In this document: piece after piece, positions 14,537-31,340 of the stretch
Numbering within the stretch: position 1 is the stretch's first letter
How the letters are laid out: each line of letters begins with the position of its first letter
Assembly: GCA_015231755.1 (NCBI GenBank)
Contig: JADGAZ010000017.1
Coordinates: forward strand, 16,891 to 48,890
Direction of reading: 5' to 3'
DNA from: Magnetococcales bacterium
GTDB lineage: Bacteria > Pseudomonadota > Magnetococcia > Magnetococcales > Magnetaquicoccaceae
Length of the DNA: 32,000 nucleotides
Position numbers and translations under genes: made by a program
The notes under the pieces: model-generated
What the model saw: only the letters and a program-made list of their open reading frames with translations
Told to the model about the DNA's origin: nothing
Database searches by the model: none

Positions 14537-14563
14537 GATGCACTGCACACAAGGCAGACAGGA

Positions 14564-14878
14564 ATGAATCCAACCCCGTCGGAGTCCGACTCCGACTCCG
14601 AAACCCCTCCATCCCCACCACCCGTTGCACCCCACGGGTTGGGAATGGCCATGCGCATGAGTACCGAACTGGTCTCTGCGGTTTTTGTGGGCGGGGGGAT
14701 CGGTTATCTGTTGGATTACTGGCTCGGAACCAATCCGTGGTTGACCCTGGTGTTTTTTTTCTTCGGGTTGGCTGCCGGGTTTCGTGACATGTACCGTTTT
14801 GCAATGCAGAGTACCCCAGGTCGGAAGGGGGGTGAAGGAGACGGTTCGCCGCTCCGTCGTCCCAAGGAACCACGCTGA
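14564..14878 (+). CDS. atpI: AtpI/AtpZ-family F0F1 ATP synthase accessory protein
   Basis: 104 aa. Two hydrophobic helices (STELVSAVFVGGGIGYLLDYWLGT, PWLTLVFFFFGLAAGF). Position immediately upstream of atpB. Has a Ser/Asp/Pro-rich N-terminal extension. Confidence 0.7.
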   Translation: MNPTPSESDSDSETPPSPPPVAPHGLGMAMRMSTELVSAVFVGGGIGYLLDYWLGTNPWLTLVFFFFGLAAGFRDMYRFAMQSTPGRKGGEGDGSPLRRPKEPR

Positions 14879-14902
14879 AGTCAAAGAGGCCGGAGACCGG
14901 AA

Positions 14903-15700
14903 TTGCTCATGGATGTTTCCTTCATCGCCGCCGCGCATGCCGAGACCGCACACAACGTGGCGACTGCGGCTCCGAAAATGGATCCATTGCACCACTTCCA
15001 GGTGGTGAATTACATCAAGATCGCGCCCTTCGGTTTTGACATTTCCATTTCCAATTCAGTGTTGTGGATGTGGATCGTCGTCGCGGTGGTCTACGGGCTG
15101 TTCCGTCTGGCGATGCGTCATCCCACCCTGGTGCCGGGACGGCTGCAAAGCGTGGCCGAGGCCGGATACCTGTTCGTGGAGACCATGATCAACGAAATCA
15201 TCGGTCACGAAGGCAAAAAGTTCTTTCCGATCATTTTCACCCTGTTTTTCTTTGTCCTGTTTTGCAACTGGACCGGTCTGATCCCCGGATCCTTCACCGT
15301 CACCTCCCAGTTGATCGTCACCGGGACGCTGGCCTTGGGGATTTTCGGGTTTAGCATTGTGCTCGGGGCGTATCATCATGGCTGGAAATTCCTGGGCTTT
15401 TTTGTTCCCCATGGCCTGCCGCCGGCCCTGCTGCCGTTGATGGTGCCCATTGAGATCATCTCCTTTCTGGCCCGTCCGATTTCCCTGTCGGTGCGTCTGT
15501 TCGCCAACATGACCGCCGGTCACACGGTGCTGGGGGTGTTGTTCTTCTTCACCGCCACCATGGCTTGGTTCGGCGCCTGGTTGCCGTTCGGCTTCACGGT
15601 GGTGTTCACGGGCATGGAAATTTTCATCGGTTTCATCCAGGCCTACATCTTTACCATTCTGACGTGTGTTTACATCAACGATTCGCTGCATATGCACTGA
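14903..15700 (+). CDS. atpB: F0F1 ATP synthase subunit a
   Basis: Family pattern MDPLHHFQV..., LSVRLFANMTAGH with the essential Arg, and IQAYIFTILTCVYI. The start is uncertain: TTG 14903, ATG 14909, or the internal ATG of MDPLHHF. Confidence 0.92.
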   Translation: MLMDVSFIAAAHAETAHNVATAAPKMDPLHHFQVVNYIKIAPFGFDISISNSVLWMWIVVAVVYGLFRLAMRHPTLVPGRLQSVAEAGYLFVETMINEIIGHEGKKFFPIIFTLFFFVLFCNWTGLIPGSFTVTSQLIVTGTLALGIFGFSIVLGAYHHGWKFLGFFVPHGLPPALLPLMVPIEIISFLARPISLSVRLFANMTAGHTVLGVLFFFTATMAWFGAWLPFGFTVVFTGMEIFIGFIQAYIFTILTCVYINDSLHMH

Positions 15701-15771
15701 TCGCGAATGTGATGTTTTTTTGTCCCTGGGACTTGGTTTTATTTCGTTTGCATGAGGAGAGACAAAAAATT

Positions 15772-15999
15772 ATGGAAAGCCTTCCCGCCTCTTTCATCGG
15801 AATGGGTTTGGCCGCCACGGGGTTGGGTGGCGCTGGCATTGGGTTGGGGTACATGTTTGGCAAGGCCATCGAGGCTTTCGCCCGGCAGCCGAGTGCCGAA
15901 GGTCAGTTGGCCAAATATGTGTGGATTGGGGCCGCGTTCGTGGAAGCCATCGCCTTGTATGGTCTGGTTCTGGCCTTCATCATCATGGGTAAAGGCTGA
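15772..15999 (+). CDS. atpE: F0F1 ATP synthase subunit c
   Basis: 75 aa from the ATG at 15772 (GAGGAGA RBS at 15755-15761). Hairpin of two helices with the ARQP loop and carboxylate (FARQPSAEG...FVEAIALYGLVLAFII). The 15565 start in the track lies inside atpB and is rejected. Confidence 0.93.
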   Translation: MESLPASFIGMGLAATGLGGAGIGLGYMFGKAIEAFARQPSAEGQLAKYVWIGAAFVEAIALYGLVLAFIIMGKG

Positions 16000-16565
16000 T
16001 GATTGCCTCCGCGCATGCCTCGGCGGGGGGCGCCGCTGCGTCGTCGGGCTTGCCGCAATTCGAGCCCAGTGTTTTCGGGTCCCAGATTTTCTGGACCGTG
16101 GTCTCGTTTTTTCTGTTGATGCTGTTGCTCAAGAAGTATGTTCTGCCAGCGATCATCAATATTCTGGACAGTCGTGCCAGTCGCATCTCGGATGATCTGC
16201 AAAAAGCCGAACAGGCCCGCAAGGAAGGAGAGCGGTTGCTGACCAACTATCAAGGACAGTTGGTCGCCGCCCGTCAAATGGCTGCCCAGACTCTGGAAGA
16301 GGCGCGTCAGGAAGCCATTCGTCACCGTGAGCAGGCTTTGGAAGATCTCAACAAGGAACTGGGCAAAAAGAAAAATGCCGCCCTGGTGGAGATCGAACAG
16401 GCCAAACACAAGGCCATGGAAGAAGTGCGCAATGCTGCTGTGGAGTTGTCCATGCTGGTGGCCGAGAAGTTGATCGTCAAGTCGATCAAGGTCGAGGATG
16501 CCAATCGCATGGTGCAAGAGGCTGTGAAGCAGCTTGGTGAGGGGGGGGAGACCAGGTTGCATTGA
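15999..16565 (+). CDS. atpF: F0F1 ATP synthase subunit b (b'-like)
   Basis: 188 aa. LPQFEPSVFGSQIFWTVVSFFLLMLLL membrane anchor followed by a long charged helix. The start overlaps the atpE stop (TGATG). Only one b-type gene is present. Confidence 0.85.
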   Translation: MIASAHASAGGAAASSGLPQFEPSVFGSQIFWTVVSFFLLMLLLKKYVLPAIINILDSRASRISDDLQKAEQARKEGERLLTNYQGQLVAARQMAAQTLEEARQEAIRHREQALEDLNKELGKKKNAALVEIEQAKHKAMEEVRNAAVELSMLVAEKLIVKSIKVEDANRMVQEAVKQLGEGGETRLH

Positions 16566-16974: not shown

Positions 16975-19590
16975 ATGGACCGTCACGAACCCATCGATTC
17001 CAAGGATTTAACGGCCTTCAGAAGCCCGACGATGGCAAGCCACGCCCGACGAACCGGCTTGATCCTTCTCGGTTGTCTCCTGCTTGCGGCCTGTGAGCCT
17101 GCATCACACATCAGGCAGTCCAGGGACCATTTTCTGCAACCGACCAATCCCGAGGTGGATATCTCCTCTGGCCCGTCTCCCAAAAAGGACGGAGCGCCAC
17201 TGGCCAGTCTGACGGATTCTTCCAGTCCCGAAGAGGTCTATACCATCACCGTCACGGAAATGCCGGTGCGTGATCTGCTGTTTGCTTTGGCCCGGGATGC
17301 CAACAAAAATATTGACGTTTACCCTGGCATCCAGGGTCGGGTCACGTTGAGCGCCATCGATCAGCCTTTGAGCAAGATTCTCGATCGTGTGGCCAAGCAG
17401 GTGGCCATCCGCTACGAAATCCAGGACAAAACCATCGTCGTGACGCCGGATTTGCCCTTCTTGAAGATCTATCAGGTGGATTATCTGGGGATCGAGCGGG
17501 AGTTGGTCAGCACCAACAAGTTGTCCACCCATCTGTCCACCTCCAAAGGCAATACCCTGTCCAACCCCCTGACCGGGGCGGATAACAACCAGTCCAACAG
17601 CACCTTGACCACGGCTTCCAGCAGCAAGTTCTGGAAAACCATCACCCAGAACATCCAGGCGATTCTGGGCGCGGATGTGGGCATCGAGTTCCAGTCTGCG
17701 CAGGAACCGGGATTGCCCACCGGCGCCCCGGGTGCTGCTGGCATCGGGGCGGGGGGGCTGGGGGCTGCCGCGGCCGGATTGCCCTCGGGTGGTGGTCTGG
17801 GCGGCCTCAACGGCATTATGCCGCCTCAAGGCGGGGTCGGTCCCGTTGGGGTCGGAGCGGTTCCCGGCAGGGGCGCGGAGAACAAGGGTGGATCCTCCAA
17901 GCCGGGTCTGGTTTCGGTCAACACCGAAGCCGGCGTCATGAGCATCGTGGCCACAGCCCAGCAGCACACCCGGATTCAAGAGTATCTGGACAGCGTGTTG
18001 GAAAATGTTCATCGTCAGGTGCTCATCGAGTCCACGGTGGTGGAGGTGGAGCTGTCGGATCGTTTCCAGGAGGGTGTGGACTGGGATCTGATCTTCAACC
18101 GCTCTGCGGGTGTGATCCTGAAAAGTGCTTTTTCCGAAAGCGCCGGCGCCTTGAACGCTGCCAGCCGTACCGCTCAGGGCACCTTGAACTATTTCACGCT
18201 GGGTCACACCGGCGGTCCGGATGGCAATGGGAGAACCGACAAGGGACCCGTGAACGCCACCATCAAGCTTCTGGAGACCTTTGGTAACGCCAAAATTTTG
18301 TCGAGTCCCAAGATCATGGCGCTCAACAATCAGCCTGCCATCCTGAAGGTGGTCAAGAACAGCGTCTTCTTCACTCTGAAATCCAGTACCGGCAACAACA
18401 ACACGGGCAATACTACCACCACGGGCACCGTGGCCTCGCAACCGGTGTTCGATACCGAAATCCACACGGTTCCGGTGGGACTGGTGATGACCGTCACGCC
18501 GCAAATCTCCAAGGAGGGGATTGTCAGTCTCAACGTGCGGCCCACCATCTCCCGCATCAGCCGTTGGGTCTCCGATCCCAACCCGGCCCTGGTGGCCGGC
18601 AACCTTCAGACCGGTCTGACCGACTCCATCAACAACGCCATTCCCGAGATCGAGGTCAAGGAGATGGAAACCATGATGCGGGTACACAGCGGTCAGGTGG
18701 CGGTCATGGGTGGCTTGATGCAGGATTCCATCAGCAACGGCTCGGCGGGTGTGCCGATGCTTTCCAGACTGCCGGGTGGCCTGGGTGCCTTGTTCAGCCA
18801 TCAGGACCAGGGGGTGAGCAAAAGCGAATTGGTGATCTTCTTGCGACCGGTTGTCATGACCCATGGCAGACCCAAAGAGCAGGTGGTCGAACGGCCCCGG
18901 GATCTGCCCAGGGAGTCCCAGCCCGCTGCGGCTCAACCGGCCCAGATCCAGGCCCAGCCCGCCCAGTCCGCCGCTGCGGCCCAACCGGCCCAGCCTGCCG
19001 CTGCGGCCAAGCCTGCCACCGCCCCTGAAAAAAGTGGCGCCGGTAAACCGGTCAACACCAGCGGTGAGAAGGCTAAACCCGCCGGAGAGCGTCCTGCCAA
19101 GGGGAATGAAGCCCGTACCACACCTCCGGTGGAAACGCCGGCTCCGGCTTCCGCTCCGACCAGCGCCGCCGCGACTCCTGCCCAGCCGCCGGCCTCTACC
19201 GCCGCCGCCGCCCAGGGGTCAGCCCCGGTCCCGGCCTCGGCCCCGGCGGCAGGGGGGAACGCCACTCCGGCTCCGGCCTCGGCCCCGCCCATCCAGACTC
19301 CGGCCTCGGCTCCGCCGACTCCTGCCCCGGCAGCGCCTCCGGCCCAGACCTCGGCCCCCCAGTCCAGAGGCAATGCGGCCAACGCCATGGCGGTAGGCTC
19401 TTATCTGGACTTCACCTCTCCGGAAGGACAGGCCAACATGTCGGGGACTGCCGCCTATCCGGCCTTTTCCGGCGGCGTGCCCCAGCATCAGGGGTTTCCT
19501 GTCACCGGTGCCCCCCAGCCCGAGGCACCCCAGCGTTCGCCTGCGGAGCAACCCACGGCTTCAGGCCTGTCCCAGGAATCCAGAATGTAA
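16975..19590 (+). CDS. Secretin (GspD/PilQ superfamily; MshL-like lipoprotein form) with a Gly-rich insertion and a long Pro/Ala-rich C-terminal tail
   Basis: Lipobox LLLAAC. N-domain YTITVTEMPVRDLLFALARDANKNIDVYPGIQGRVTLSAIDQPLSKILDRVAK...IYQVDYLG. Canonical secretin C-domain: GNAKILSSPKIMALNNQPAILKV..., IPEIEVKEMETMMRVHSGQVAVMGGLM..., VPMLSRLPGGLGALF..., ELVIFLRPVVM. The start is taken at ATG 16975 (AGAGGAAAAAGG 8 nt upstream); ATG 17032 is an alternative. Confidence 0.88.
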   Translation: MDRHEPIDSKDLTAFRSPTMASHARRTGLILLGCLLLAACEPASHIRQSRDHFLQPTNPEVDISSGPSPKKDGAPLASLTDSSSPEEVYTITVTEMPVRDLLFALARDANKNIDVYPGIQGRVTLSAIDQPLSKILDRVAKQVAIRYEIQDKTIVVTPDLPFLKIYQVDYLGIERELVSTNKLSTHLSTSKGNTLSNPLTGADNNQSNSTLTTASSSKFWKTITQNIQAILGADVGIEFQSAQEPGLPTGAPGAAGIGAGGLGAAAAGLPSGGGLGGLNGIMPPQGGVGPVGVGAVPGRGAENKGGSSKPGLVSVNTEAGVMSIVATAQQHTRIQEYLDSVLENVHRQVLIESTVVEVELSDRFQEGVDWDLIFNRSAGVILKSAFSESAGALNAASRTAQGTLNYFTLGHTGGPDGNGRTDKGPVNATIKLLETFGNAKILSSPKIMALNNQPAILKVVKNSVFFTLKSSTGNNNTGNTTTTGTVASQPVFDTEIHTVPVGLVMTVTPQISKEGIVSLNVRPTISRISRWVSDPNPALVAGNLQTGLTDSINNAIPEIEVKEMETMMRVHSGQVAVMGGLMQDSISNGSAGVPMLSRLPGGLGALFSHQDQGVSKSELVIFLRPVVMTHGRPKEQVVERPRDLPRESQPAAAQPAQIQAQPAQSAAAAQPAQPAAAAKPATAPEKSGAGKPVNTSGEKAKPAGERPAKGNEARTTPPVETPAPASAPTSAAATPAQPPASTAAAAQGSAPVPASAPAAGGNATPAPASAPPIQTPASAPPTPAPAAPPAQTSAPQSRGNAANAMAVGSYLDFTSPEGQANMSGTAAYPAFSGGVPQHQGFPVTGAPQPEAPQRSPAEQPTASGLSQESRM

Positions 19591-19636: not shown

Positions 19637-19665
19637 AAGCCGTCCCTTGTGGACGGCTTTTTTTT
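19637..19665 (+). terminator. Rho-independent terminator after the secretin gene
   Basis: AAGCCGTCC (19637-19645), loop CTTGT, GGACGGCTT (19651-19659), running into a T8 tract (to 19665). Confidence 0.85.
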
Positions 19666-19874
19666 GGAGGCAGGTCAATGGTCGTGAATGGCGCGATGCG
19701 TGTCCGGATTGATATCGGCCCATGCGGGGATCCCGGTTAGGGATGGTTACGATTTTTTACCGGATATTAATAGGATTTCTTGCAAAATTCGGTATACTGT
19801 AAACTTGGTGTGTTTCGCTTGCGCATGCGGAACCATGATTGCGTCCATTTCCTTGCAAGGGATTTTCACGATCC

Positions 19875-22800
19875 ATGGGCAATCTTCTTCGGAATAAACG
19901 GTTGGTGGCGATAGTGGCCCTTGTGGTCCTGGTAGGCGTGGGCGGATATCTGTTGTTCGCGCCGGACACCACGGAGAAAAAGAAGCCGATCGTCGTGGAA
20001 CGGGCCAAACTGGCTCAACCCGAGAAAAAATCCCAGGATTCCGCATCCAAAGCCCAAGGAGCGGATCAAACCGCACCCAAACGGGAAGTGGTCGGCACGG
20101 TGAGCCAGTTCAAGGGGTTGGCGTTCGCCAATTTTGAGAATGTCAAGCGCACCTTGTCCGATGGCGCCCCTTTGTTCCAGGGGGATCAGATCATCACCGG
20201 TCGCGAGGGACGCATCATTCTGAAAATGCGCGATGATGCGGTCGTGGCCCTGGGGCCGGACAGCGAATTCTTGATCCAGGAATACCAGTTCGCCCCCAAG
20301 GAGCAGGCGGGCAATGGTGTGGTGCATATGACTCAAGGAATGATTCGGTTTACTTCCGGCAAGCTGGCGCAGATGAAAAATCAGCCCTTCAAGGTGGTCA
20401 CCCCGGTGGCGACTTTGGGGGTGCGGGGCACCGAAGGTTTTGTCCGTCTGGGTGACGGCAAGGGCAAGGATCGAGAGATCGAGGTTCTCACCTTGCACAA
20501 GCAGATCCTGGTGTGGATGGAAGAGGCGGCGCGACCCGGACCGGTCACCTCGTCTTCCCTGGGTGAGATTTATCGTTCCTGGGGTTGGTCCCTGGTGTCC
20601 GAGGCCCAGGCCGCGGATACGGGCAAACAGCCTTTGTCGGTCAATCAGAACGAACGTCTTTCCGGCAGTCCCAACAAGGCGCCGGAGATCCGCAAGGCCA
20701 CTCGGGATGAGTTGAAAGCCGCCCACGCGTCCACCGCAATCCGCAAGTTGAGCCCCTCCGCCGTGCAGGCCCTGCGCAATCAGGCGGCCAAGGCTTTGGT
20801 GGAGCAGGGCGGGGCGCCGGATCTGGCCACCGCCGAAAAACTGTTGGCTAAATCTCCCGACGCCATCCGGGATCTGGTGGACAAGGCCGAAGCCAAGCTG
20901 GAAAAAGAGCTGGACAAGGCGATCGACAAAAAACTCGATCAGATCGAAAAGCTCGAAAAACTGGACAGCAAGCTGAAAGAGTCCATGGGGGAGGAGGCTT
21001 TCGCCCAGTACAAAAAGGCCGAAGAGCAGCGGGAATCCCAGTCGGAAGCGTTGCAGCAGGAGCGGGATCAGAAACTCAAAAATCTTTTGGGGAATGATGC
21101 CAAGGTCGAAGAGGTCAAGCAACTCGAAGCCGACAAGGAAGCGCGCAAGGACGCTTTGATCGACAAGATGACCGAAGAGATCGCCAAGGCCGAAGCGGAA
21201 AAAGATACCAAAAAACAGGCGGCCCTCAAGGCGGAATTGGACAAGAAACTGGCCGCCTTGGACAAAGAGACCGATCAGACCTTGAAGAACCTCCTCGGCT
21301 CGGACAAGGCCGACCAGATCAAACAGGCAGACAAGCAAAATGAGTCGCGTCAAAGCCAGATCGACGCCGAATTTGCCAAACAGATCGATGCGGTGGTGCC
21401 CGCCGACAGCAAAGAAAACGTCAAGGCCCTTCAGCAGCAGAAGGAGCGGATTCAGTCCGAGCCGACGGTGGATCTCTCCCCCCTGGGGCTGAGTCGGGTT
21501 TCGGAGAGCGTGCAAGCCGGTATTCTGAAGAGCCTCGGGACGGATATGAGTGCGTTCGCCGACGGAATCGTGAGCGCGGTCAAGTCCGGCACCGGGTTGG
21601 AGCAGGCATTGCAGCGTTTGCACGATGCGGTGCAGGCTCGGGATCGGCAGGAGGCCAGTCGTCTGGGGGTGACGGATCTGGACTCGGCCCGGAAGCTCGA
21701 ACAGGAGGCCCGGCAGGCCATCGAACCGTCCACGCCTTCTCCCGAGGTCACACCCGCCACCGAGGCCAAGCCCGTTACCGGGGCCAAGCCCGCCACCGAA
21801 GCCAAAACCGAAGGCAAAACCCCGGAATCGGAAAGCAAGACCGAAGGCAAGCCCACCACCGACACCAAAAAATCCGAAGCGGATGCGGCCAGCAAAGCCG
21901 CCGTACCGGCCCCCGATTCCGGGACCGCCACCACGACCGTTCCCGGTGGTTTGTCACCCTCGGCGCTGGATCCTTCCGCCGGCGGCAATGCGGGCTCTTC
22001 GGGGGCGTCGAACACCACCACCACCACCTCGATTCAAGCCAATCAGTCTCCTGTCATGGAGACCCAAAGCTTTACCATCCAGGAAAACGCTCCGGCGGGT
22101 ACCGTCGTGGGCACGTTGATCGCTTCGGATGCGGATACGGTGGATCAAAACCGCTTGACCTTCACCCTGGGGGGGTCCAGTGCCTTTGCCGTGGGATCCA
22201 AAAGCGGTCAGATCACGGTCGTCGACTCTTCGCTGCTGGACTTCGAGACCACACCCACCTTCACCTTGACCGCTGCGGTGAAGGATGCCCGGAATGCCAC
22301 GACCTCCGCCACGGTGTTGATCAAACTCACCAATGTCAACGAGGCGCCCACCATCACCTCCACGGCTGCCGCCAGCTTTGCCGAAAACGCCACGGGTACG
22401 GTCTATCAGGCCACCGCCACCGATCCGGATAGCGGGGATACCAAGGTCTGGAGTCTGTCCGGCAGCGATGCCTCCCTGTTTGCCATCAACAGCGCCACCG
22501 GGGCTGTGACTTTCAACGCCGCTCCGGATTATGAGACTCCCAAGGACTCCGGCGCGGACAACACCTATGATATCACGGTAGTTGCCACCGACGCCGCAGG
22601 CGCGGCGGGATCCAAGGCCGTGGCCATCACGGTGACCAATGTTAATGAAGCCCCCACGGTTTCTTCGCCGGCCACCGCCAGCTTTGTCGAAAACGGTACC
22701 GGAATCGCCTATCAGGCCACGGTATCGGATCCGGATGCCAACGACACGTTCGCTTGGACCTTGTCGGGCACGGATGCGGCCCTGTTTTCCATCCAGGCCG

Positions 22801-25800
22801 CCACCGGTGCCGTGAGCTTCAAACAGGCTCCGGACTACGAATCTCCCAAGGATGCCGGGGCGGACAACGTTTACGATTTCAGCGTGACCGTGACCGATGG
22901 GGGCAATCTGTCGGCCACCCGTGCTGTCGCGCTCACCGTGACCGCGGGCAACGACGCCCCGACGATCACATCCGGGTCCGCGGTGAGTTTTGTGGAGAAT
23001 GGCACCGGAATCGCCTACCAGGCCACCGCCACGGATCCGGATGTCGGGGATACCCGGAGCTGGACCCTTTCCGGAGTGGACGCTTCTTTGTTTGCCATCG
23101 ACAGCGCCACTGGGGCGGTGACCTTCAAGCAATCCCCGGACTTTGAATCCCCCAAGGATGCGGGGGGCAACAACGTGTATGACCTGAGCGTGACGGTTAC
23201 GGATGCGGGGGGATTGTCCAGCACCAAGGCGGTGGCCATCACCGTGACCCATGTCAACGAAGCCCCATCGGTCCTTTCCGGGACCACAGCGACTTTCCCC
23301 GAAAACGGCACGGGCACGGTCTACCAGGGCATTGCCACGGATCCGGATGCCGGAGACCGGTTGAACTGGAGCCTATCCGGGACCGACGCGGCCTTGTTTG
23401 TCGTGGATGCATCCAGCGGGATGGTGACCTTCAAGCAAAGCCCGAACTTTGAACTCCCCCAGGATGCGGGGGCCAACAACATCTATGATGTGGTCGTGAC
23501 GGTGACCGATCAGGGAGGCTTGACCAGTGCCCGCGCCGTGGCCATCACCGTGACCGATGTGAACGAAGCGCCGACCGTCACGTCGGGCGCCACGGTGAGC
23601 TTTGCCGAAAAGGCCACCGGTACGGTCTATCAGGCCACCGCCACGGATCCGGATGTCGGGGATACCCGGAGCTGGACCCTTTCCGGGGTGGACGCTTCTT
23701 TGTTTGCCATCGACAGCGCCACTGGAGTGGTCACCTTCAAGCAATCCCCGGACTATGAAGCCCCCAAGGATGCGGGGGGGGACAACGTGTATGACCTGAA
23801 CGTGACGGTCACGGATGCGGGGGGATTGTCCGGCACCAAGGCGGTGGCCATCACTGTGACCAATGTCAACGAAGCCCCCATCGCCTTCGACGACACCGCC
23901 ACGGCCACGGAAGCCGGTGGCATCCTCAACGGTACTCCTGGCACCCCGGCCAGCGGCACGGTGCTGGGCAACGATACCGATGTGGATGCGGGTACCACCC
24001 TGACCGTCACCGCCATCCGCACAGGCGGCGTGGAAGGGAGTGGCGTGGCGGGGACGGTCGGTGTCGCTTTGACCGGCGCCCATGGCTCCCTGACCCAGGC
24101 GGCTGATGGCACTTTTGTCTATACGGTGAATGAGAACGATACGGCGGTGCAGGCGTTGGCGGCGGGGCAGAGTCTCACCGATCTGTTCAATTATACGGTG
24201 TCCGACGGGGCGTTGACCGATACCGGGGTGTTGACCATCACCATCCAGGGGGCCAACGATGCCCCGGTGGCCGTGGACGATGCCGGTTCCGCCACCGAGG
24301 CGGGTGGTACGGCCAATGGCACTCCAGGCAGTCCCGCCACCGGCAATGTGTTGACCAACGATACCGATGTGGATGCCGGCGCTACGTTGCAGGTCACGGC
24401 GGTGCGTCTGGGGGCGGTGGAAGGCAGTGGGGCCGCCGGAGTGCCCGGAAGTGCCTTGTCCGGCAACTACGGGGTGCTGACCCTTGCGGCCAGCGGGGCG
24501 TATACCTATGTGGTCAACGAAAGCCATGCCGCGGTTCAGGCCCTCAAGTCGGGCCAGAGTCTGGTGGATGCCTTCAATTATTCGGTTTCCGATGGCGCGT
24601 TGTCCGATCAGGGGGTGCTGACCATCACCATTCAAGGGGTCAACGACGCCCCGGTGGCCCAGAACGATTCCGGAGTGGCCATCGAAGCCGGTGGTGTGGC
24701 CAATGGCAGTACCGGCAGTCAGGCCGCGGGCCATGTGTTGACCAACGACACCGACCCGGAAAACGATACCCTCTTTGTGACCGCCGTGCGGGTGGGCAGC
24801 GTCGAAGGCAGCGGGAGTGCCGGCACCTTGGGCAGTGCCTTGGCTGGCACCTATGGTTCCCTCGTGTTGAACGGTTCCGGTGACTATACCTATGCGGTCA
24901 ACGAAAGCGATGCCACCATTCAGGCGTTGCAATCCGGTCAGAGTGTGACCGATTCGTTCAATTATACCGTCTCCGATGGCGCGTTGACCGATATCGGCGT
25001 GTTGACCATCACCATCCAGGGGAGCAACGACGCCCCCACCATCACATCGGCGGCCACCGTCAACTTTGCCGAAAACGGCACCGGTCCTGTTTACACCGCG
25101 ACGGCGACGGATCCGGAAAACCATGGGATCACTTGGTCGCTTTCCGGTACGGACGCGGCCCGGTTTTCCATGGATGCCACCACGGGTGTGATTCGTTTCC
25201 TCGCGACTCCGGATTATGAAGGGCCCACGGATGCCAATCTGGACCGGGCGTATGAAGTGGTGATCACCGCCACGGATGACGGGGTGGGCAATGCCGCCAG
25301 TTCCATGGCCTTGACCATCAGCGTCACCGATGTCAACGAAGCTCCGGTGGGTCAGAATGACACCGGAACCGCCATCGAGGCCGGTGGAGTGAACAACACC
25401 TCGGCGGGCAGCGATGCCAGTGGCAATGTGCTCACCAACGACCAGGACGCCGATGCCAATACCACCCTGACGGTCACGGCCATCCGCTTGGGTGGGGTGG
25501 CGGGCAGTGGGAGTGCCGGCGTGGTGGGATCCGCTTTGACCGGCACGTATGGCACCCTGACGGTGAGTGCCAGCGGGGATTATCAGTATGTGGTCAACAA
25601 CACCTTGGCGGCGGTGCAGGTGCTGCAATCTGGCCAGACCTTGTCGGAAAGCTTCAATTATACGCTTTCCGATGGGGCCTTGAGCGCGACGGCGGTTCTG
25701 ACCGTCACCATCCAGGGGGCCAACGACGCCCCGGTGGCCGTTGACGACACCGCCAGCGCCACCAGGGCCGGCAACGGTGCTGGGGTGAGTCCCGGTACGG

Positions 25801-28800
25801 CTTCCGGGAATGTCTTGTCCAATGACAGCGATGTGGAGGGTGACACCCTGACCGTGAGCGCCCTTCGCACCGGGGCGGTCGAAGGCAGCGGCACGAGTGG
25901 TACCCTCGGCAGCGCCTTGAGCGGTTCTTATGGCACGTTGACCATGGCCGCCGATGGCAGTTATCTCTACACGATCAACGAGTCCGCCACGGCGGTGCTG
26001 GCCTTGAGTCTGGGGCAGACCCTGACCGACTCCTTCAACTATACCGTCACCGATTCCGGCTGGACGGATACGGCGGTGCTGACCATCACCATCCTGGGGA
26101 ACAACAGCGCCCCGGTGGCGGTGGACGACAGCGCCACCGCCATCGAGGCCGGTGGAACCGGCAATGCCACCGCCGGCAGCAACGCCAGCGGCGATCTGCT
26201 CGCCAACGATACCGACGCCGAATCCAATACCCTGTCCGTCACCGCCATCCGTCTGGGCGCGGTGGAAGGCAGTGGCACGGCGGGAGCGGTGGGTTCGGCG
26301 CTGTCCGGAACCTATGGCACCCTCACGGTGAGCGGGAGTGGTGTGTTTACCTATGTGGTCAACGACACCCTGGCGGCGGTGCAGGCGTTGCAATCCGGTC
26401 AGAGCCTGACGGAAAGCTTCAATTATACCGTTTCCGACGGATCGATGACCGATACGGCGGTGTTGACCATCACCATTCAGGGGGCCAACGACGCCCCGGT
26501 GGCGGCGGACGACACCGGCACGGCCACCGACGCAGGAGGCGCGGCCAACGCCACGGCTGGCAGCAACGCCACGGGCAATCTGCTGAGCAACGATACGGAT
26601 CCGGAGTCCGACGCTTTGAGCGTTACGGCGGTTCGGCTCGGCGCGGTGGAGGGGAGTGGCAGCGAGGTTGCCGCCGGTACGGCGCTGGTGGGCACCTATG
26701 GTACCCTGACCGTCACCGGCAGCGGGAGTTATACCTATGTGGTGGATTCGTCCAACGCCACGGTCGAGGCTTTGACCGTGGGGCAGAGTGTGACCGAATC
26801 CTTCAATTATACGGTTTCCGATGGTCAGTTGACCGATACGGCCCTGCTGACCATCACTATCCAGGGGGTCAACGATGCCCCGGTGGCTGTGGCCGACAGC
26901 GGTACGGCTGTGGAAGCCGGTGGGGTGGCCAATGCCACGGCAGGATCCAACGCCACCGGGAATCTGCTCACCAACGATACCGATGTGGATACCGGTGCCA
27001 CTTTGACCGTGACTGCGGTGCGGACCGGAAGTGTCGCCGGCAGCGGCAGCGCCGGGACAGTGGGTGGCTCTTTGAGCGGTTCTTATGGCGCTTTGACCGT
27101 GACCGGCACCGGTGCCTACACCTATGTGGTGGATGACGCCAATGCCACGGTTCAGGCCTTGCAGGCGGGTCAGAGCCTGACGGAGAGTTTCAACTACACC
27201 GTCTCCGATGGCTCCTTGACCAGCGACGCGGTGTTGACCATCACCATCCAGGGAGCCAACGATGCCCCGTCCGCCACGGACGATACCGGCACCGCCACCG
27301 AGGCGGGCGGCACGGCCAATGGCACCGCGGGCGTCAATGCCACCGGCAATGTGTTGAGCAATGATATCGATGTGGAATCCGATACCTTGACGGTCACCGC
27401 CGTGCGTACCGGCAATGTGGAAGGCGGTGGTACCGCCGGTACGGTGGGCAGTTCCTTGTCCGGTACCTATGGTGCCCTGGTTCTGAATGCCTCGGGGGCT
27501 TATACCTATGTGGTCAATGATGCCTCCTCCGTGGTCCAGGCGTTGCAATCCGGACAAAGCCTGACCGATGCGTTCAACTATACCGTCTCCGATGGTGCCT
27601 TGACCGATACGGCCCTGTTGACCATCACCATTCAGGGGGCCAACGACGCCCCGACCATCACCTCGGCCACCTCCGTCAGCGTGGCGGAAAACACCGTCGG
27701 CACGTTCTACACCGCCACGGCCACGGATCCGGAAGGCGACTCCGTCACCTGGTCGGTCTCCGGCACGGATGCGGATCGCTTCTCCATCGACGCCACCACC
27801 GGTGCCTTGAGCTTCCTCATCGCTCCGGATTATGAAAATCCCACCGATTCCGGGGCGGACAATCTTTATGATGTCACCCTGGTGGCCACGGACAGTGGTT
27901 CCGGCACCCTCGCTGGTACCCTTGCCCTCAGCGTCACCGTCACCAATGCCAACGATGCGCCCACGATCACCTCACCTGCCAGTGTATCGGCCACAGAGGA
28001 TACGCCGGTCTCCATCTCCTTTGCCGTGGCGGATGTGGATTCCGGTACCAATACCATCCAGGCCACCCTCGCGGTTGCCAACGGTACCCTGACCCTCAAT
28101 GCCGGTTCCGGGGTGAGCATCGTTTCGGGAAGTGACGCTTCGGCGGGCATGACCCTTTCCGGCACGGTTTCCCAGATCAATACCGCGGTGTCGAATCTGG
28201 TCTATCAAGGGACTACCGATTTTTCCGGTCAGGAGATCCTGACCCTGGTTGTGGACGACCTGGGCAATACCGGCGCCGGCGGGGCGATGAGTGCCACCGC
28301 CACGGTCACCTTCACTGTCGCCGCGGTCAATGACGCCCCGGTGATCACCGCTCCGGCCTCCGCCACGGTGACCGAAGATGTGGCCGCCACCATCAGCGGG
28401 TTTGCCATCACCGATGTGGACGTGGGCACCGGTACCATGCAAGCCACTCTGTCGGCGACCAACGGTACCTTGACTTTGACCTCCGGCTCCGGGGTGAGCG
28501 TCACCTCGGGGGCGGACAGTTCCGCCAGCATGGTGATCACCGGCACCTTGACCCAGCTCAATACCGCCCTGGGTACCCTGACCTATCAGGGCACGGCCAA
28601 CTACAACGGTTCCGAAACCCTCACCCTCACCGTTTCCGATCTGGGCAACACCGGCTCCGGGAATGCCCAGACTGCCACGGCCAGTTTCACCTTCACGATT
28701 ACCGCGGTCAACGACGCCCCGGTCATCACCCAACCCACCTTGAGTGCGACGGAAGATACCGCCCTGGTGATCAGTGGTCTTTCGGTAAGCGACGTGGATG

Positions 28801-31340
28801 CGGGCACCGGCACCTTGCAGGCGACTTTGGGGGTGACCAACGGTACCTTGACTTTGGCTTCCGGCTCCGGGGTGACGCTGACTTCCGGTGCGGACGCTTC
28901 GGCCAGTATGGTCATCACCGGTACCTTGACCCAGTTGAATGCCGCCTTGAGTGGCATGACCTATCAGGGCACCCTCAACTACAACGGCACGGAAACTTTG
29001 ACCCTGACCGTCTCCGATCAGGGCAACACCGGTCCGGATGGGGCCCAGAGCGCCACGGCCTCGATAGGCTTTACCGTCGCCGCGGTCAATGACGCGCCGG
29101 TGCTGGCCGCCCCCACGTCGGCCACGGTCACCGAGGATGTGGCCGCCGCCATCACCGGTTTTGTCATCACCGATGTGGACGTGGATACCGCTACCATGCA
29201 AGCCACCCTGACGGCGACCAACGGCACCTTGACCTTGACCACCGGATCCGGGGTGACCGTCGCGTCGGGGGCGGACAGTTCCTCCAGCATGGTGATCACC
29301 GGCACCCTGACCCAGCTCAATACCGCCTTGAGTACCCTGACCTATCAGGGCAATACCGACTACAACGGTGCCGAGACCATTACCGTGACGGTCTCCGATC
29401 AGGGCAATACCGGCACCGGTGGCGCCCTGACCGCCACGGCCACTTTGTCTTTCACCATCACGGCGGTCAACGACACGCCGGTCATCACACAGCCCACCTT
29501 GAGCGTCAACGAGGATACCGCGCTGGTGATCACCGGTCTGTCGGTGAGTGATCCGGATGCGGGCACCGGCACCCTGCAGGCCACTCTGGGCGTGACCAAC
29601 GGTACCTTGACCTTGGCTTCCGGCTCCGGGGTGACCCTGACCTCCGGTGCGGACGCTTCCGCCAGTCTGGTCATCACCGGTACCTTGACCCAGTTGAACG
29701 CCGCTTTGAGTGGCATGACCTATCAGGGCACCCTCAACTACAACGGCACGGACACTCTGACTCTCACCATCTCCGATCAGGGCAACACCGGTCCGGATGG
29801 CACCAAGAGCGCCACCGCCACCATGAGCATCACCGTCGCGGCGGTCAACGACGCCCCGGTGATCTCCGGTTCTCCCACCCCCAGCATCAACGTGGATGTG
29901 GCGGGTTCCATCACCGGTCTGTCCGTGACCGACGTGGATGTGGGTACCGCCACGCTTCAGGCCACTTTATCGATGTCCCACGGGACCATCACCCTGGCCA
30001 CCGGCTCGGGTGTGACCATCACCTCCGGAGCGGACGCTTCGGCCAGCATGGTTTTCACCGGCACCTTGACCCAGGTGAACGCCGCCATCGCCACGATGAC
30101 CTATTTGAGCGATTCCGGTTACCTTGGATCCGAAACCGTGACATTGACCATCTCCGACCAGGGGAATACCGGCTCGGGTGGCACCCTGACCGCCACCACC
30201 ACGGTGACCTTTACCATCACCGCTGTGGGCACGCCCACGGATATCACCCTGAGCAACACCAGCCTGTATGAAAACGCCGATCCCGGCTCCCATGTCGGCC
30301 TATTGGGGGCGGTGGATTCGGAGACCGGGGATACCTTCACGTTCACCGTGACGGCGGATCCCGACTCCCTGTTTGACATTCGGACTTCCGGAACCAGTAG
30401 TTATTTGATCGTGCGCAGCGGAGCCACCCCCACCGTGGGCAGCCACTCCGTCACGTTGCAAGTGGCGGACGCCGCGGCCCGCACCTTCAGCAAGAGCTTC
30501 ACCATCACCGTGACGGCGGTGCCGTTCGATCTGGATTCGGCGGCGGATGTGGACAGCGCGGCCACGGTGAAATCCAACGCGGAGACGTTGTTCAAGAGCG
30601 TGATTGCCACCATGAACACCGCGTCTTCTTCCATGACCTTGACCAATGCCAACCTGCGCACCTTGATTCTGGGCAAGCTGGGTCAGCAATTCACCACAGG
30701 CGGGTCGTTCACGTATGGGATCAGCGATGTGATCAAGCGGATGACCGTTGAGGTCATGCCGGCGGACGATCCCACCGTCATCCGCATTCTGGTGCGGGTC
30801 GGGGTGATCAACAGCATGTATTCCCGTCTGCCCTCTTCGGTGCAGAGTGTGTTCGATGGTCTGTTCGACACCTTCGCCCCCTATGCCACGGATTACACCA
30901 CCGATGTGCGCATCCGCTTGGTGCCGATCGTGAGCAACACCGCCAAGACCATTGCTGTGGATACCGCCAACTCCACCGTGGAAGTGCTGCATCTCCAGAT
31001 GCTGCCCAACATCAGCATGAGTTTCACCACGCTGTTGAGCGCCTACAACACCGCGTTGACCAACCTGAAGAGCGACGGCACCTTGACCTTCTTCACCGGG
31101 GGAGGGGGGCATGGTCCTTCGGCCCATGTGCTCTCTTCGGCCCTGGGCACCACGGGGTCTGAGGGGGTCACCTTGCACAGCACCCTCAAGACCACAGCGG
31201 TTGCCAATGGCATCACGGCTCAATATGTCGAAGACGGGAACAGTCAACAGATTCCCACCAGTCAACGGTTTGATTATTACCTGCCGGGTCTGATCACCTC
31301 CATCTCCTTGAGTACCGGCGGCATCACCTTGAGCCGCTGA
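19875..31340 (+). CDS. Giant (~3,821 aa) membrane-anchored repeat protein: TM anchor, FecR domain, charged helical stalk, P/T/K linker, cadherin-like repeats, VCBS-type repeats, ~126-aa repeats and a unique C-terminal domain (putative Ca-dependent adhesin)
   Basis: Single uninterrupted frame of 11.5 kb. ATG 19875 gives MGNLLRNKRLVAIVALVVLVGVGGYLLFAPD. FecR pattern at ~20086-20445: VVGTVSQFKGLAF...LFQGDQIITGREGRIILKMRDDAVVALGPDSEF...FKVVTPVATLGVRGTEGFV. K/E-rich helix at ~20820-21460. Repeats are delimited by V-N-E/D-A-P junctions (see repeat features). The TTG at 19839 is an alternative start. Confidence 0.93.
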   Translation: MGNLLRNKRLVAIVALVVLVGVGGYLLFAPDTTEKKKPIVVERAKLAQPEKKSQDSASKAQGADQTAPKREVVGTVSQFKGLAFANFENVKRTLSDGAPLFQGDQIITGREGRIILKMRDDAVVALGPDSEFLIQEYQFAPKEQAGNGVVHMTQGMIRFTSGKLAQMKNQPFKVVTPVATLGVRGTEGFVRLGDGKGKDREIEVLTLHKQILVWMEEAARPGPVTSSSLGEIYRSWGWSLVSEAQAADTGKQPLSVNQNERLSGSPNKAPEIRKATRDELKAAHASTAIRKLSPSAVQALRNQAAKALVEQGGAPDLATAEKLLAKSPDAIRDLVDKAEAKLEKELDKAIDKKLDQIEKLEKLDSKLKESMGEEAFAQYKKAEEQRESQSEALQQERDQKLKNLLGNDAKVEEVKQLEADKEARKDALIDKMTEEIAKAEAEKDTKKQAALKAELDKKLAALDKETDQTLKNLLGSDKADQIKQADKQNESRQSQIDAEFAKQIDAVVPADSKENVKALQQQKERIQSEPTVDLSPLGLSRVSESVQAGILKSLGTDMSAFADGIVSAVKSGTGLEQALQRLHDAVQARDRQEASRLGVTDLDSARKLEQEARQAIEPSTPSPEVTPATEAKPVTGAKPATEAKTEGKTPESESKTEGKPTTDTKKSEADAASKAAVPAPDSGTATTTVPGGLSPSALDPSAGGNAGSSGASNTTTTTSIQANQSPVMETQSFTIQENAPAGTVVGTLIASDADTVDQNRLTFTLGGSSAFAVGSKSGQITVVDSSLLDFETTPTFTLTAAVKDARNATTSATVLIKLTNVNEAPTITSTAAASFAENATGTVYQATATDPDSGDTKVWSLSGSDASLFAINSATGAVTFNAAPDYETPKDSGADNTYDITVVATDAAGAAGSKAVAITVTNVNEAPTVSSPATASFVENGTGIAYQATVSDPDANDTFAWTLSGTDAALFSIQAATGAVSFKQAPDYESPKDAGADNVYDFSVTVTDGGNLSATRAVALTVTAGNDAPTITSGSAVSFVENGTGIAYQATATDPDVGDTRSWTLSGVDASLFAIDSATGAVTFKQSPDFESPKDAGGNNVYDLSVTVTDAGGLSSTKAVAITVTHVNEAPSVLSGTTATFPENGTGTVYQGIATDPDAGDRLNWSLSGTDAALFVVDASSGMVTFKQSPNFELPQDAGANNIYDVVVTVTDQGGLTSARAVAITVTDVNEAPTVTSGATVSFAEKATGTVYQATATDPDVGDTRSWTLSGVDASLFAIDSATGVVTFKQSPDYEAPKDAGGDNVYDLNVTVTDAGGLSGTKAVAITVTNVNEAPIAFDDTATATEAGGILNGTPGTPASGTVLGNDTDVDAGTTLTVTAIRTGGVEGSGVAGTVGVALTGAHGSLTQAADGTFVYTVNENDTAVQALAAGQSLTDLFNYTVSDGALTDTGVLTITIQGANDAPVAVDDAGSATEAGGTANGTPGSPATGNVLTNDTDVDAGATLQVTAVRLGAVEGSGAAGVPGSALSGNYGVLTLAASGAYTYVVNESHAAVQALKSGQSLVDAFNYSVSDGALSDQGVLTITIQGVNDAPVAQNDSGVAIEAGGVANGSTGSQAAGHVLTNDTDPENDTLFVTAVRVGSVEGSGSAGTLGSALAGTYGSLVLNGSGDYTYAVNESDATIQALQSGQSVTDSFNYTVSDGALTDIGVLTITIQGSNDAPTITSAATVNFAENGTGPVYTATATDPENHGITWSLSGTDAARFSMDATTGVIRFLATPDYEGPTDANLDRAYEVVITATDDGVGNAASSMALTISVTDVNEAPVGQNDTGTAIEAGGVNNTSAGSDASGNVLTNDQDADANTTLTVTAIRLGGVAGSGSAGVVGSALTGTYGTLTVSASGDYQYVVNNTLAAVQVLQSGQTLSESFNYTLSDGALSATAVLTVTIQGANDAPVAVDDTASATRAGNGAGVSPGTASGNVLSNDSDVEGDTLTVSALRTGAVEGSGTSGTLGSALSGSYGTLTMAADGSYLYTINESATAVLALSLGQTLTDSFNYTVTDSGWTDTAVLTITILGNNSAPVAVDDSATAIEAGGTGNATAGSNASGDLLANDTDAESNTLSVTAIRLGAVEGSGTAGAVGSALSGTYGTLTVSGSGVFTYVVNDTLAAVQALQSGQSLTESFNYTVSDGSMTDTAVLTITIQGANDAPVAADDTGTATDAGGAANATAGSNATGNLLSNDTDPESDALSVTAVRLGAVEGSGSEVAAGTALVGTYGTLTVTGSGSYTYVVDSSNATVEALTVGQSVTESFNYTVSDGQLTDTALLTITIQGVNDAPVAVADSGTAVEAGGVANATAGSNATGNLLTNDTDVDTGATLTVTAVRTGSVAGSGSAGTVGGSLSGSYGALTVTGTGAYTYVVDDANATVQALQAGQSLTESFNYTVSDGSLTSDAVLTITIQGANDAPSATDDTGTATEAGGTANGTAGVNATGNVLSNDIDVESDTLTVTAVRTGNVEGGGTAGTVGSSLSGTYGALVLNASGAYTYVVNDASSVVQALQSGQSLTDAFNYTVSDGALTDTALLTITIQGANDAPTITSATSVSVAENTVGTFYTATATDPEGDSVTWSVSGTDADRFSIDATTGALSFLIAPDYENPTDSGADNLYDVTLVATDSGSGTLAGTLALSVTVTNANDAPTITSPASVSATEDTPVSISFAVADVDSGTNTIQATLAVANGTLTLNAGSGVSIVSGSDASAGMTLSGTVSQINTAVSNLVYQGTTDFSGQEILTLVVDDLGNTGAGGAMSATATVTFTVAAVNDAPVITAPASATVTEDVAATISGFAITDVDVGTGTMQATLSATNGTLTLTSGSGVSVTSGADSSASMVITGTLTQLNTALGTLTYQGTANYNGSETLTLTVSDLGNTGSGNAQTATASFTFTITAVNDAPVITQPTLSATEDTALVISGLSVSDVDAGTGTLQATLGVTNGTLTLASGSGVTLTSGADASASMVITGTLTQLNAALSGMTYQGTLNYNGTETLTLTVSDQGNTGPDGAQSATASIGFTVAAVNDAPVLAAPTSATVTEDVAAAITGFVITDVDVDTATMQATLTATNGTLTLTTGSGVTVASGADSSSSMVITGTLTQLNTALSTLTYQGNTDYNGAETITVTVSDQGNTGTGGALTATATLSFTITAVNDTPVITQPTLSVNEDTALVITGLSVSDPDAGTGTLQATLGVTNGTLTLASGSGVTLTSGADASASLVITGTLTQLNAALSGMTYQGTLNYNGTDTLTLTISDQGNTGPDGTKSATATMSITVAAVNDAPVISGSPTPSINVDVAGSITGLSVTDVDVGTATLQATLSMSHGTITLATGSGVTITSGADASASMVFTGTLTQVNAAIATMTYLSDSGYLGSETVTLTISDQGNTGSGGTLTATTTVTFTITAVGTPTDITLSNTSLYENADPGSHVGLLGAVDSETGDTFTFTVTADPDSLFDIRTSGTSSYLIVRSGATPTVGSHSVTLQVADAAARTFSKSFTITVTAVPFDLDSAADVDSAATVKSNAETLFKSVIATMNTASSSMTLTNANLRTLILGKLGQQFTTGGSFTYGISDVIKRMTVEVMPADDPTVIRILVRVGVINSMYSRLPSSVQSVFDGLFDTFAPYATDYTTDVRIRLVPIVSNTAKTIAVDTANSTVEVLHLQMLPNISMSFTTLLSAYNTALTNLKSDGTLTFFTGGGGHGPSAHVLSSALGTTGSEGVTLHSTLKTTAVANGITAQYVEDGNSQQIPTSQRFDYYLPGLITSISLSTGGITLSR
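22041..23867 (+). repeat. Six tandem cadherin-like coding repeats (first divergent, then five units of exactly 306 nt / 102 aa)
   Basis: The junction Asn codons of VNEAP/GNDAP fall at 22338, 22644, 22950, 23256, 23562 and 23868. Unit consensus: F.ENGTG..YQATATDPD.GDT..W.LSG.DA.LF.I....G.V.F...PD.E.PKD.G..N.YD..V.VTD..G.....AVAITVT.VNEAP. Confidence 0.85.
23868..27950 (+). repeat. Nine VCBS-type coding repeats (381-387 nt, 127-129 aa) in blocks of 3 and 6, each block closed by one cadherin-like unit (25026-25334 and 27642-27950)
   Basis: Junction Asn codons at 24255, 24642, 25026, 25335, 25722, 26103, 26487, 26871, 27258 and 27642. Unit consensus: DD.G.A.EAGG..N...GS.A.GN.L.NDTD...G..L.VTA.R.G.VEGSG..G..GS.L.G.YG.L......G.YTYVV......VQAL..GQSL...FNYTVSDG.L.D...LTITIQG.NDAP. 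Confidence 0.85.
27951..30226 (+). repeat. Six tandem ~126-aa coding repeats of an unassigned family, alternating 378 and 381 nt (a two-unit 759-nt super-repeat)
   Basis: Junction Asn codons at 27951, 28329, 28710, 29088, 29469 and 29847. Unit consensus: P.SAT.EDT...I.G....DVD.GT.T.QATL...NGTLTL..GSGV...SGAD.S.SM.ITGTLTQLN.AL...TYQG...YNG.ETLT.TVSD.GNTG.......A...FT..AVNDAP. A terminal cadherin-like unit follows at 30227-30522. Confidence 0.85.

Follow-up and report, generated by a model that had tools for sequence, protein, structure and literature searches.

A FecR-type domain with a putative anchoring role heads a giant repeat protein encoded beside a lipoprotein secretin in Magnetococcales

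How does a Gram-negative cell bring a protein of several thousand residues to its surface and keep hold of it there? Giant adhesins are known to be displayed by a type 1 secretion system (T1SS) combined with a retention module that plugs TolC, by the type 5 systems, or by sortase-like anchors at the C-terminus. The question is raised again by a 32,000-nucleotide stretch of a Magnetococcales bacterium (assembly GCA_015231755.1, contig JADGAZ010000017.1, positions 16,891 to 48,890; hereafter the window), in which a gene for a giant repeat protein directly follows a secretin gene. This Magnetococcales family shows a different combination: a homologue of the adhesin retention domain, a Sec-type N-terminus that replaces the T1SS signal, and a lone lipoprotein secretin as the neighbour. 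The architecture and the gene pairing are solid, and from them we infer a mechanism. We tentatively read the head of the protein (aa 1-722) as the periplasmic anchoring and stalk module of a Magnetococcales-specific giant adhesin that works with the upstream secretin, and hold this reading at somewhat under an even chance. The two genes and the segments of the head are listed here by their coordinates in the window, with the per-residue confidence of AlphaFold2 (pLDDT) where it applies.

17032..19590, + strand: MshL-type lipoprotein secretin of 852 aa, directly upstream of the giant gene
19875-31340, + strand: giant gene, an open reading frame (ORF) of 3821 aa
19875..19961, + strand: N-region (MGNLLRNKR, charge +3) and then a hydrophobic stretch of 20 residues (aa 10-29), either a cleavable signal peptide or a Sec signal-anchor
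19962..20087, + strand: disordered spacer (aa 30-71), rich in K/P/E/Q, in which a EKKKPIVVERAK motif is conserved; pLDDT <50 for aa 27-67
20088..20696, + strand: FecR/CJM-type beta domain (aa 72-274), from Pfam, AlphaFold2 and Foldseek
20703..21455, + strand: helical region (aa 277-527), three short conserved helices and then K/E/A-rich amphipathic helices, from AlphaFold2
21480..21722, + strand: small conserved helical domain (aa 536-616) with the motifs G..LEQ.LQ and EA..LGV.D.D.A; pLDDT 81-94, conserved family-wide
21723..22040, + strand: disordered P/T/S/A/K/E-rich linker (aa 617-722), from composition; pLDDT ~30

The original prediction for this DNA had recognised a FecR-type beta-sandwich behind the N-terminus, and the domain was recovered at both the sequence and the structure level. 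Pfam matched FecR (PF04773) to aa 104-196 with 38.6 bits (cut-off 24, E 1.5e-9). The AlphaFold2 model of the head, built from a 9-sequence family alignment (mean pLDDT 74, predicted TM score (pTM) 0.65, 183 disordered residues), contained a confident all-beta domain at aa 72-215 and 254-274 with pLDDT >90. Foldseek related this domain to the FecR-type periplasmic domain of BDI_1681 (4m0n) and to the cell-surface signalling domain of PupR (6ovk_R), with an E-value of ~5e-6 and a TM score of ~0.52.

FecR domains had been thought to be otherwise confined to anti-sigma and sensor proteins, a view that does not survive the comparison with adhesins. Over its first ~60 residues, the beta domain shares homology with the domain that anchors T1SS giant adhesins at their N-terminus. 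In the Foldseek comparison, the first 62 residues superposed on 5ix9, the "cell surface anchoring domain" of an ice-binding adhesin from Marinomonas, with a TM score of 0.76 and a root-mean-square deviation of 1.0 A, and 5ix9_A was the sole significant match when a family profile of the domain was compared with the PDB sequences (E 1.3e-7). Because of this homology, the head parallels the logic of LapA, in which an N-terminal plug stays in the periplasm, rather than inverting it as had been proposed. The NCBIfam model of the LapA retention module (NF033682) aligned to aa 72-137 with 23.9 bits, under its cut-off of 50; the domain, though homologous, is not a curated member of that family. Several non-giant FecR relatives pass this cut-off, so the model mostly recognises a generic FecR-like half-domain. 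The nearest non-giant relatives of the domain (L015, 238-4279; L016, 2113-8121) are proteins of ~480-700 aa with two to three tandem FecR domains.

The likeness to LapA of Pseudomonas fluorescens and MpIBP of Marinomonas primoryensis extends beyond the beta domain. In all of them, a small N-terminal beta domain, homologous to the first ~60 residues of the FecR-type domain described here, is followed by a flexible segment that could thread an outer membrane channel while the beta domain stays periplasmic, and the bulk of the protein is a giant acidic stalk of calcium-type Ig-like repeats. There are also clear differences. The giant protein has a full FecR/CJM fold, placed behind a spacer and a Sec-type segment, which T1SS adhesins of this type lack, rather than at the extreme N-terminus, and it has neither RTX repeats nor a T1SS signal. 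No ATP-binding cassette (ABC), membrane fusion protein (MFP) or TolC-like genes and no LapG or LapD genes were found in the 32-kb window or the related loci, and the giant protein lacks the canonical LapG site, TAAG. Its outer membrane neighbour is instead a secretin. By analogy, the closest functional counterpart of the giant protein would be a retained adhesin of the LapA type, but with another channel.

The pairing with the secretin is a property of the family. An exhaustive HMMER search yielded ~20 representative giant proteins of 904-5776 aa, whose heads can be aligned from residue 1; a word-indexed homologue search found just seven short FecR proteins with the head and nothing with the C-terminal domain. 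All members from named sources belong to the Magnetococcales. They include the cultured Magnetococcus marinus MC-1, where the giant protein ABK45748.1 is annotated as "Cadherin" and the secretin Mmc1_3259 as "MshL". Among 14 loci with enough upstream sequence, 13 have an orthologous lipoprotein secretin immediately 5' of the giant gene (the window, L001, L002, L004-L009, L012, L014, L018 and L019). The pair is kept down to ~26-30 % head identity while its flanks change, and no third gene is conserved with it. The outer flanks hold atp genes in the window and L001, aat in L002, L007, L008 and MC-1 (with polA in MC-1 and L008), and other genes elsewhere. Among the papers searched, none described the MC-1 genes or a pairing of a giant gene with a secretin.

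In the secretin itself, the lipobox (LAAC) is followed by an STN-like N0 domain, Secretin_N_2, a Gly-rich spacer and the secretin core, and a P/A/Q-rich tail closes the protein. Pfam matched Secretin with 127.5 bits as well as Secretin_N_2. The secretins that adjoin giant genes share 41-60 % identity and are always lipoproteins. Their C-termini take two forms: the window and L001 have a ~240-aa P/A/Q-rich low-complexity tail (18900-19590 in the window), and the orthologues in L007, L008, L012, L014, L018 and L019 have a terminal SPOR domain, which binds peptidoglycan.

The secretin could be a bystander that belongs to a mannose-sensitive haemagglutinin (MSHA)-type pilus encoded elsewhere. The giant protein would then take another route or stay in the envelope, and its FecR domain would bind another partner. 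Consistent with this, the secretin exceeds the cut-off of the MshL equivalog model TIGR02519 (261.1 bits against 250.2), the family member in L013 has no secretin upstream, and the public annotation of the MC-1 pair reads just 'MshL' and 'Cadherin'. A terminator-like hairpin and a separate conserved element also lie between the two genes, so that they need not be co-transcribed. Set against these points are the adjacency in 13 of the 14 loci, across which everything outside the pair changes, and the lack of T1SS features in the giant protein. Moreover, an MshL-type secretin is the sole component that recalls an MSHA pilus or type 2 secretion system: no pilin, assembly ATPase, platform protein or T1SS genes were found in the 32-kb window (Pfam, selected ORFs) or in the 27-kb MC-1 locus, where the hypothetical neighbours lack a prepilin motif. 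We consider a bystander secretin unlikely.

The beta domain also carries a possible release joint. An invariant Gly-Thr pair, G185-T186 (nt 20427-20432), lies within PVATLGVRGTEGF; it aligns with G181-T182 of Escherichia coli FecR (LTALGTEFTV) and corresponds in position to G191-T192 of FoxR. G-(T/S) is found at this position in all 24 heads. FecR and FoxR cleave themselves at Gly-Thr via an N-O acyl shift (PMC8144685, PMC9249621). The motif suggests that the anchoring domain contains a non-covalent joint made by autoproteolysis; if it cleaves, an N-terminal stub and the giant remainder would be joined through the beta domain alone. Self-cleaving tethers are known from eukaryotic adhesion proteins, namely the GAIN/GPS module of adhesion G-protein-coupled receptors and the SEA domain of mucins. 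With Gly-Thr cleavage, which is predicted here from the motif, the giant stalk would be attached to its membrane stub in a similar non-covalent way, although the folds are unrelated and there is no homology.

A second short motif is found in the same domain. A loop at aa 219-249 (20529-20621), just past the retention-like half, is disordered in the AlphaFold2 model and contains a conserved W.WSL..EA.AAD(T) motif. The A.AAD part is present in 15 of the 24 heads, namely those of the closer subfamily. It recalls the di-alanine LapG site of LapA, though the motif is non-canonical.

The fate of the N-terminal hydrophobic segment bears on how the head is held. It was judged by rules, namely hydrophobicity scales and the -3/-1 rule, over 21 family representatives. 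Residues 10-29 (LVAIVALVVLVGVGGYLLFA) hold the most hydrophobic 19-mer of the giant protein (Kyte-Doolittle 2.77) and sum to -2.4 kcal/mol on the Hessa scale; AlphaFold2 predicts a helix at aa 8-28. A Sec-type N-terminus is conserved in ~24 heads. Inner-membrane anchoring had originally been deduced from a proline that follows the sole plausible A-X-A-like site and blocks its cleavage. That site, A29|P30, is indeed blocked, and Pro30, directly after the hydrophobic segment, is invariant in close orthologues. It is not the sole candidate, however, as the -3/-1 rule also admits G21-V-G23|G and V22-G-G24|Y25, and a deduction that leans on one site does not hold. The latter site has textbook signal-peptide geometry: it lies 24 residues from the N-terminus, preceded by an h-region of 11 residues and the c-region G-V-G-G. 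Essentially all 21 representatives share the (A/V)-G-(G/A)|aromatic pattern.

These sites allow a different account of retention, in which signal peptidase I cuts behind V-G-G24, so that Y25 becomes the first residue of the mature protein, and the folded FecR-like domain alone retains this protein at the periplasmic side of the secretin. Besides the family-wide site, three distant members look like proteins with cleavable signal peptides: P0039, with an apolar run of just 15 residues and a dG19 of +6.5, P0032, with a dG19 of +1.4, and P0101, with an A-Q-A|A site. The anchoring domains of LapA and MpIBP reportedly function without a membrane anchor, according to a preprint. Conversely, in the subfamily of the window the apolar run spans 20-21 residues, its dG19 is -2.4 to -3.7, and it goes on past the GG as a conserved YLLL(A/V/M)P. 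The 40-residue disordered spacer, in which the conserved motif is kept and the remainder varies in length among orthologues, is typical of membrane-tethered periplasmic proteins, and canonical FecR-type proteins have a membrane anchor just upstream of the FecR domain (PMC7186176). Because the family-conserved (A/V)-G-G|Y site satisfies the -3/-1 rule, the segment could be an anchor or a cleaved signal, of which the anchor is slightly the more likely. Retention of a cleaved protein by the domain alone is a serious but minority possibility.

Behind the beta domain, the helical region is not predicted to form the rod that had been envisaged. An uninterrupted K/E/D/Q/A-rich segment with LKNLLG.D repeats had been described, which as a continuous helix would measure ~30 nm. 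Its composition and repeats were confirmed. Residues 316-530 consist of 17 % K, 14 % A, 13.5 % E, 11 % L, 11 % D and 9 % Q, and LKNLLGND (aa 400-407) and LKNLLGSD (aa 469-476) belong to the two copies of a duplicated 69-aa, two-helix unit, whose score of 86 was reached by none of 500 shuffles (mean 40 +/- 7). The continuity was not. AlphaFold2 gives six helices of 18-44 residues each on this 69-aa repeat (328-371, 373-405, 408-441, 445-474, 476-507 and 510-527), with breaks at Gly372, Gly406, residues 442-444, Gly475 and Pro509. Hydrophobic positions recur at 3-4, 7-8 and 11 residues, which points to amphipathic, packing helices, as do the high pLDDT and the pTM of 0.65 despite 183 disordered residues. 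Together with the helix breaks, the model indicates that the charged region is made of packed helical repeats and not of a 30-nm rod. The number of helical units and the length of the region vary among orthologues. Pfam and NCBIfam returned nothing significant for the helical region; weak T2SSF and AAA_15 matches that appeared in searches of this region and of the C-terminal domain were discarded as noise.

The arrangement recalls domain II of TolA, an inner-membrane anchored, K/A/E-rich helix that spans the periplasm. Both proteins have an N-terminal membrane segment and then a long Lys/Ala/Glu-rich helical region, but the giant protein has a beta domain between the two, and six segments in place of one rod. 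The P/T-rich linker expected before the repeats is present as well: residues 617-722 are rich in T/A/S/P and disordered in the AlphaFold2 model. The head as first described, with a Sec-type segment, a FecR fold, a helical charged region and a flexible linker in succession, is supported, and anchoring in the envelope is its best reading.

The FecR fold could also mean that the head is a sensor, which would pass on events at the cell surface, for instance adhesion or a force exerted on the stalk, to the other side of the inner membrane, as in FecR/PupR or the CHASE2-associated FecR proteins. Like the regulators FecR, PupR and FoxR, the giant protein has a membrane helix, then a periplasmic FecR (CJM) beta domain, and the homologous Gly-Thr self-cleavage motif is conserved. 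The closest non-giant relatives adjoin CHASE2 kinases, and the window encodes a sigma-54 two-component pair 5 kb upstream. However, only nine residues precede the hydrophobic segment, in place of the ~80-residue cytoplasmic anti-sigma domain of the regulators, which leaves no room for this or another cytoplasmic output domain and makes a signalling role unlikely. Unlike the regulators, the giant protein also lacks the FecR_C and STN subdomains (PF16344 and PF07660, by Pfam), has helices after its beta domain (AlphaFold2) and continues for ~3500 residues beyond it. No gene for an extracytoplasmic function (ECF) sigma factor or a TonB-dependent transducer, the neighbours of these regulators, was found by Pfam scans of selected ORFs of the window and of the called genes of the other loci, and the two-component genes are not conserved beside the pair in other loci. 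We therefore regard signalling as a very improbable main function.

Our preferred reading, an anchoring and stalk module that works with the secretin, can be put as a sequence of steps. First, judging from its sequence, the N-terminal hydrophobic segment would direct the chain through Sec in an N-in topology. The FecR/CJM-type domain, for which fold and homology were established above, would then fold and stay in the periplasm like the LapA/MpIBP anchoring domain. What holds it there may be an uncleaved signal-anchor, with the 40-residue spacer as the link, or docking on the secretin's STN-like N0 ring, or the two together. Next, the helical repeats and the disordered P/T linker would lead into and through the secretin channel, so that the stalk of cadherin, VCBS and tandem-95 repeats and the C-terminal domain would be displayed outside the cell. 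Finally, self-cleavage at the retained FecR-type Gly-Thr motif could provide a non-covalent, releasable joint. Export through the secretin is an inference. The acidic pI of 4.08 and the absence of cysteine, given below, fit an unfolded passage across the periplasm and calcium binding outside.

Docking on the N0 ring has a structural precedent in the regulators. In PupR, an STN subdomain is the packing partner of the FecR/CJM subdomain, and the transducer's STN-fold signalling domain is bound only if the two are present (PMC7186176). The N0 domain of the secretin might stand in, as a separate protein, for the STN subdomain, which in FecR-type regulators is part of the same chain. Sub-threshold STN and FecR_C matches were found in the N0 domain of four of four secretin orthologues. 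In functional terms, TsaP sets an example of a non-pilus protein that docks on a secretin: this periplasmic beta-domain protein binds the type IV pilus secretin PilQ from outside, forms a belt around it and connects it with a further layer of the envelope (bioRxiv 10.1101/2020.05.29.123786). TsaP has a LysM domain and two FlgT-like beta-roll domains in ~340 aa (bioRxiv 10.1101/2020.05.29.123786). The giant protein, in contrast, has no LysM (Pfam) and a single beta domain of the FecR/CJM fold. A TsaP-like identity was also considered for its close FecR relatives and rejected, as these have tandem FecR domains without LysM and lie beside CHASE2 kinase or TPS genes.

Several observations weigh against this reading. 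An MshL-type secretin could serve a pilus encoded elsewhere, the L013 locus lacks a secretin, the two genes may be transcribed separately, and cleavage of the signal is almost as likely as an anchor, as discussed above. In addition, the STN match of the secretin N0 (19.3 bits) is under the gathering cut-off of 28.4, and the non-giant FecR relatives adjoin genes for CHASE2 Ser/Thr kinases or TPS-domain exoproteins, not secretins. No energy source or pushing machinery is encoded near the pair. We know of no experiment or structure in which a secretin exports or holds a giant non-pilus protein.

A bolder version of the same idea is that a giant adhesin exported by Sec uses the secretin both as its conduit across the outer membrane and as a collar to dock on, that the FecR domain and the secretin N0 form a split FecR module, and that Gly-Thr self-cleavage makes a tether releasable by force or by a signal. 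In this version, the giant protein, which is acidic, rich in Thr and Ser and of the calcium type, could be the >350-kDa calcium-dependent glycoprotein of the flagellar-bundle sheath or the surface-fibril protein of magnetotactic cocci. We consider the whole of it improbable. For strain MO-1, a calcium-dependent flagellar-sheath glycoprotein of >350 kDa, Sap, is reported (PMC7175107). At 384 kDa, the giant protein falls in the size range of this glycoprotein, a link that serves as a speculative lead only.

If the coupling of giant protein and secretin is mechanistic, secretins would gain an undescribed class of substrate, and a structural role outside signalling would be added to the FecR fold, perhaps together with a self-cleaving release joint. 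Should the secretin act as both conduit and collar, this would be a new way to display giant surface proteins, and a self-cleaving tether would be a bacterial counterpart of the GAIN and SEA tethers. The pair can be tested, as it exists in the cultured and sequenced MC-1, and it may be relevant to the sheath of magnetotactic cocci and to their unidentified envelope fibres.

Beyond the head, the giant protein consists of two further parts.

22041..30521, + strand: repeat stalk of cadherin, VCBS/Cadherin_4/Big_9 and tandem-95 domains, from Pfam and NCBIfam
30522..31340, + strand: family-specific C-terminal alpha/beta domain (aa 3550-3821, 272 aa), ending ...IPTSQRFDYYLPGLI.S..L..G.ITL(T/S)(P/R)

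The stalk scored 652.9 bits for Cadherin_4, 377 for Big_9 and 189 for Cadherin in Pfam, and 473 for VCBS and 305 for tandem-95 in NCBIfam. It thus has the long cadherin-like, VCBS and tandem-95 arrays by which BapA/LapF-like giant adhesins are recognised. As a whole, the giant protein has a mass of 383.7 kDa, a pI of 4.08, 16 % Thr and no cysteine in its 3821 residues.

Pfam found no RTX/HemolysinCabind or T1SS-type C-terminal repeats in the giant protein, which ends in a distinct globular domain instead. This domain is present in all complete family members, with the shared ending ...DYY(L/F)PGL...G.(I/V)TLT(P/R), and is modelled by AlphaFold2 with pLDDT 82 and pTM 0.80. It has no match in Pfam or NCBIfam, and Foldseek found no PDB fold at E <= 0.001. 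The top Foldseek match was YceB (3l6i, E 0.0095, TM 0.2-0.3), with BPI lower in the list; these weak matches are at most a hint of a TULIP-like lipid-binding fold and were not used. One giant gene appears divided: in L006 (9358-17575, Magnetococcus sp. YQC-9) two ORFs, of 2038 aa and 673 aa, take its place, and the conserved C-terminal domain lies in the second. This is probably due to a frameshift or an assembly error in the repeats.

The region between the secretin gene and the giant gene contains three features.

19637..19667, + strand: terminator-like hairpin (19637-19659; 9 pairs, 6 of them G-C) and T-run after the secretin gene
19745..19802, + strand: conserved ~58-nt element (GGTTACGATTTTTTACC.GATAT.AAT.GGATTT...GGTATACTGTAA), nearly invariant in 6 of 7 orthologous loci
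19857..19877, + strand: ribosome-binding site (AAGGGA) and start codon ATG at 19875, with conserved context and upstream in-frame stops in 4 orthologues

ATG 19875 is the real start of the giant gene. An alignment of the upstream regions showed that the ribosome-binding site and the ATG context are kept in seven orthologues, and in four of these orthologous genes in-frame stops lie 6-8 codons 5' of the start. A start downstream of the FecR region, which would have refuted the first description of the head, is therefore ruled out.

The terminator-like hairpin is kept in the orthologous intergenic regions. Since the hairpin and the ~58-nt element separate the giant gene from the secretin gene, the giant gene may have a promoter of its own. 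The element probably acts at the DNA level as this promoter or as an operator, although a sigma-70 consensus scan of the intergenic region gave no match. Short inverted repeats occur within it, such as GATATC in orthologues. It matched no Rfam family at the gathering score, and a riboswitch leader was rejected, as the fold of the alignment has in addition just one pair with a compensatory change.

Further upstream in the window, at 11949-16565, a PAS histidine kinase and a sigma-54 response regulator are encoded directly 5' of an F0-only ATP synthase cluster (atpI-like, a, b' and b). This arrangement of two-component and atp genes is common to the window and L001 and is not found in the other loci.

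The repeat region of the giant gene also contains long antisense ORFs of up to 1394 aa, for example at 23373-27557 on the - strand. These ORFs are by-products of GC-rich, stop-poor repeats rather than genes.

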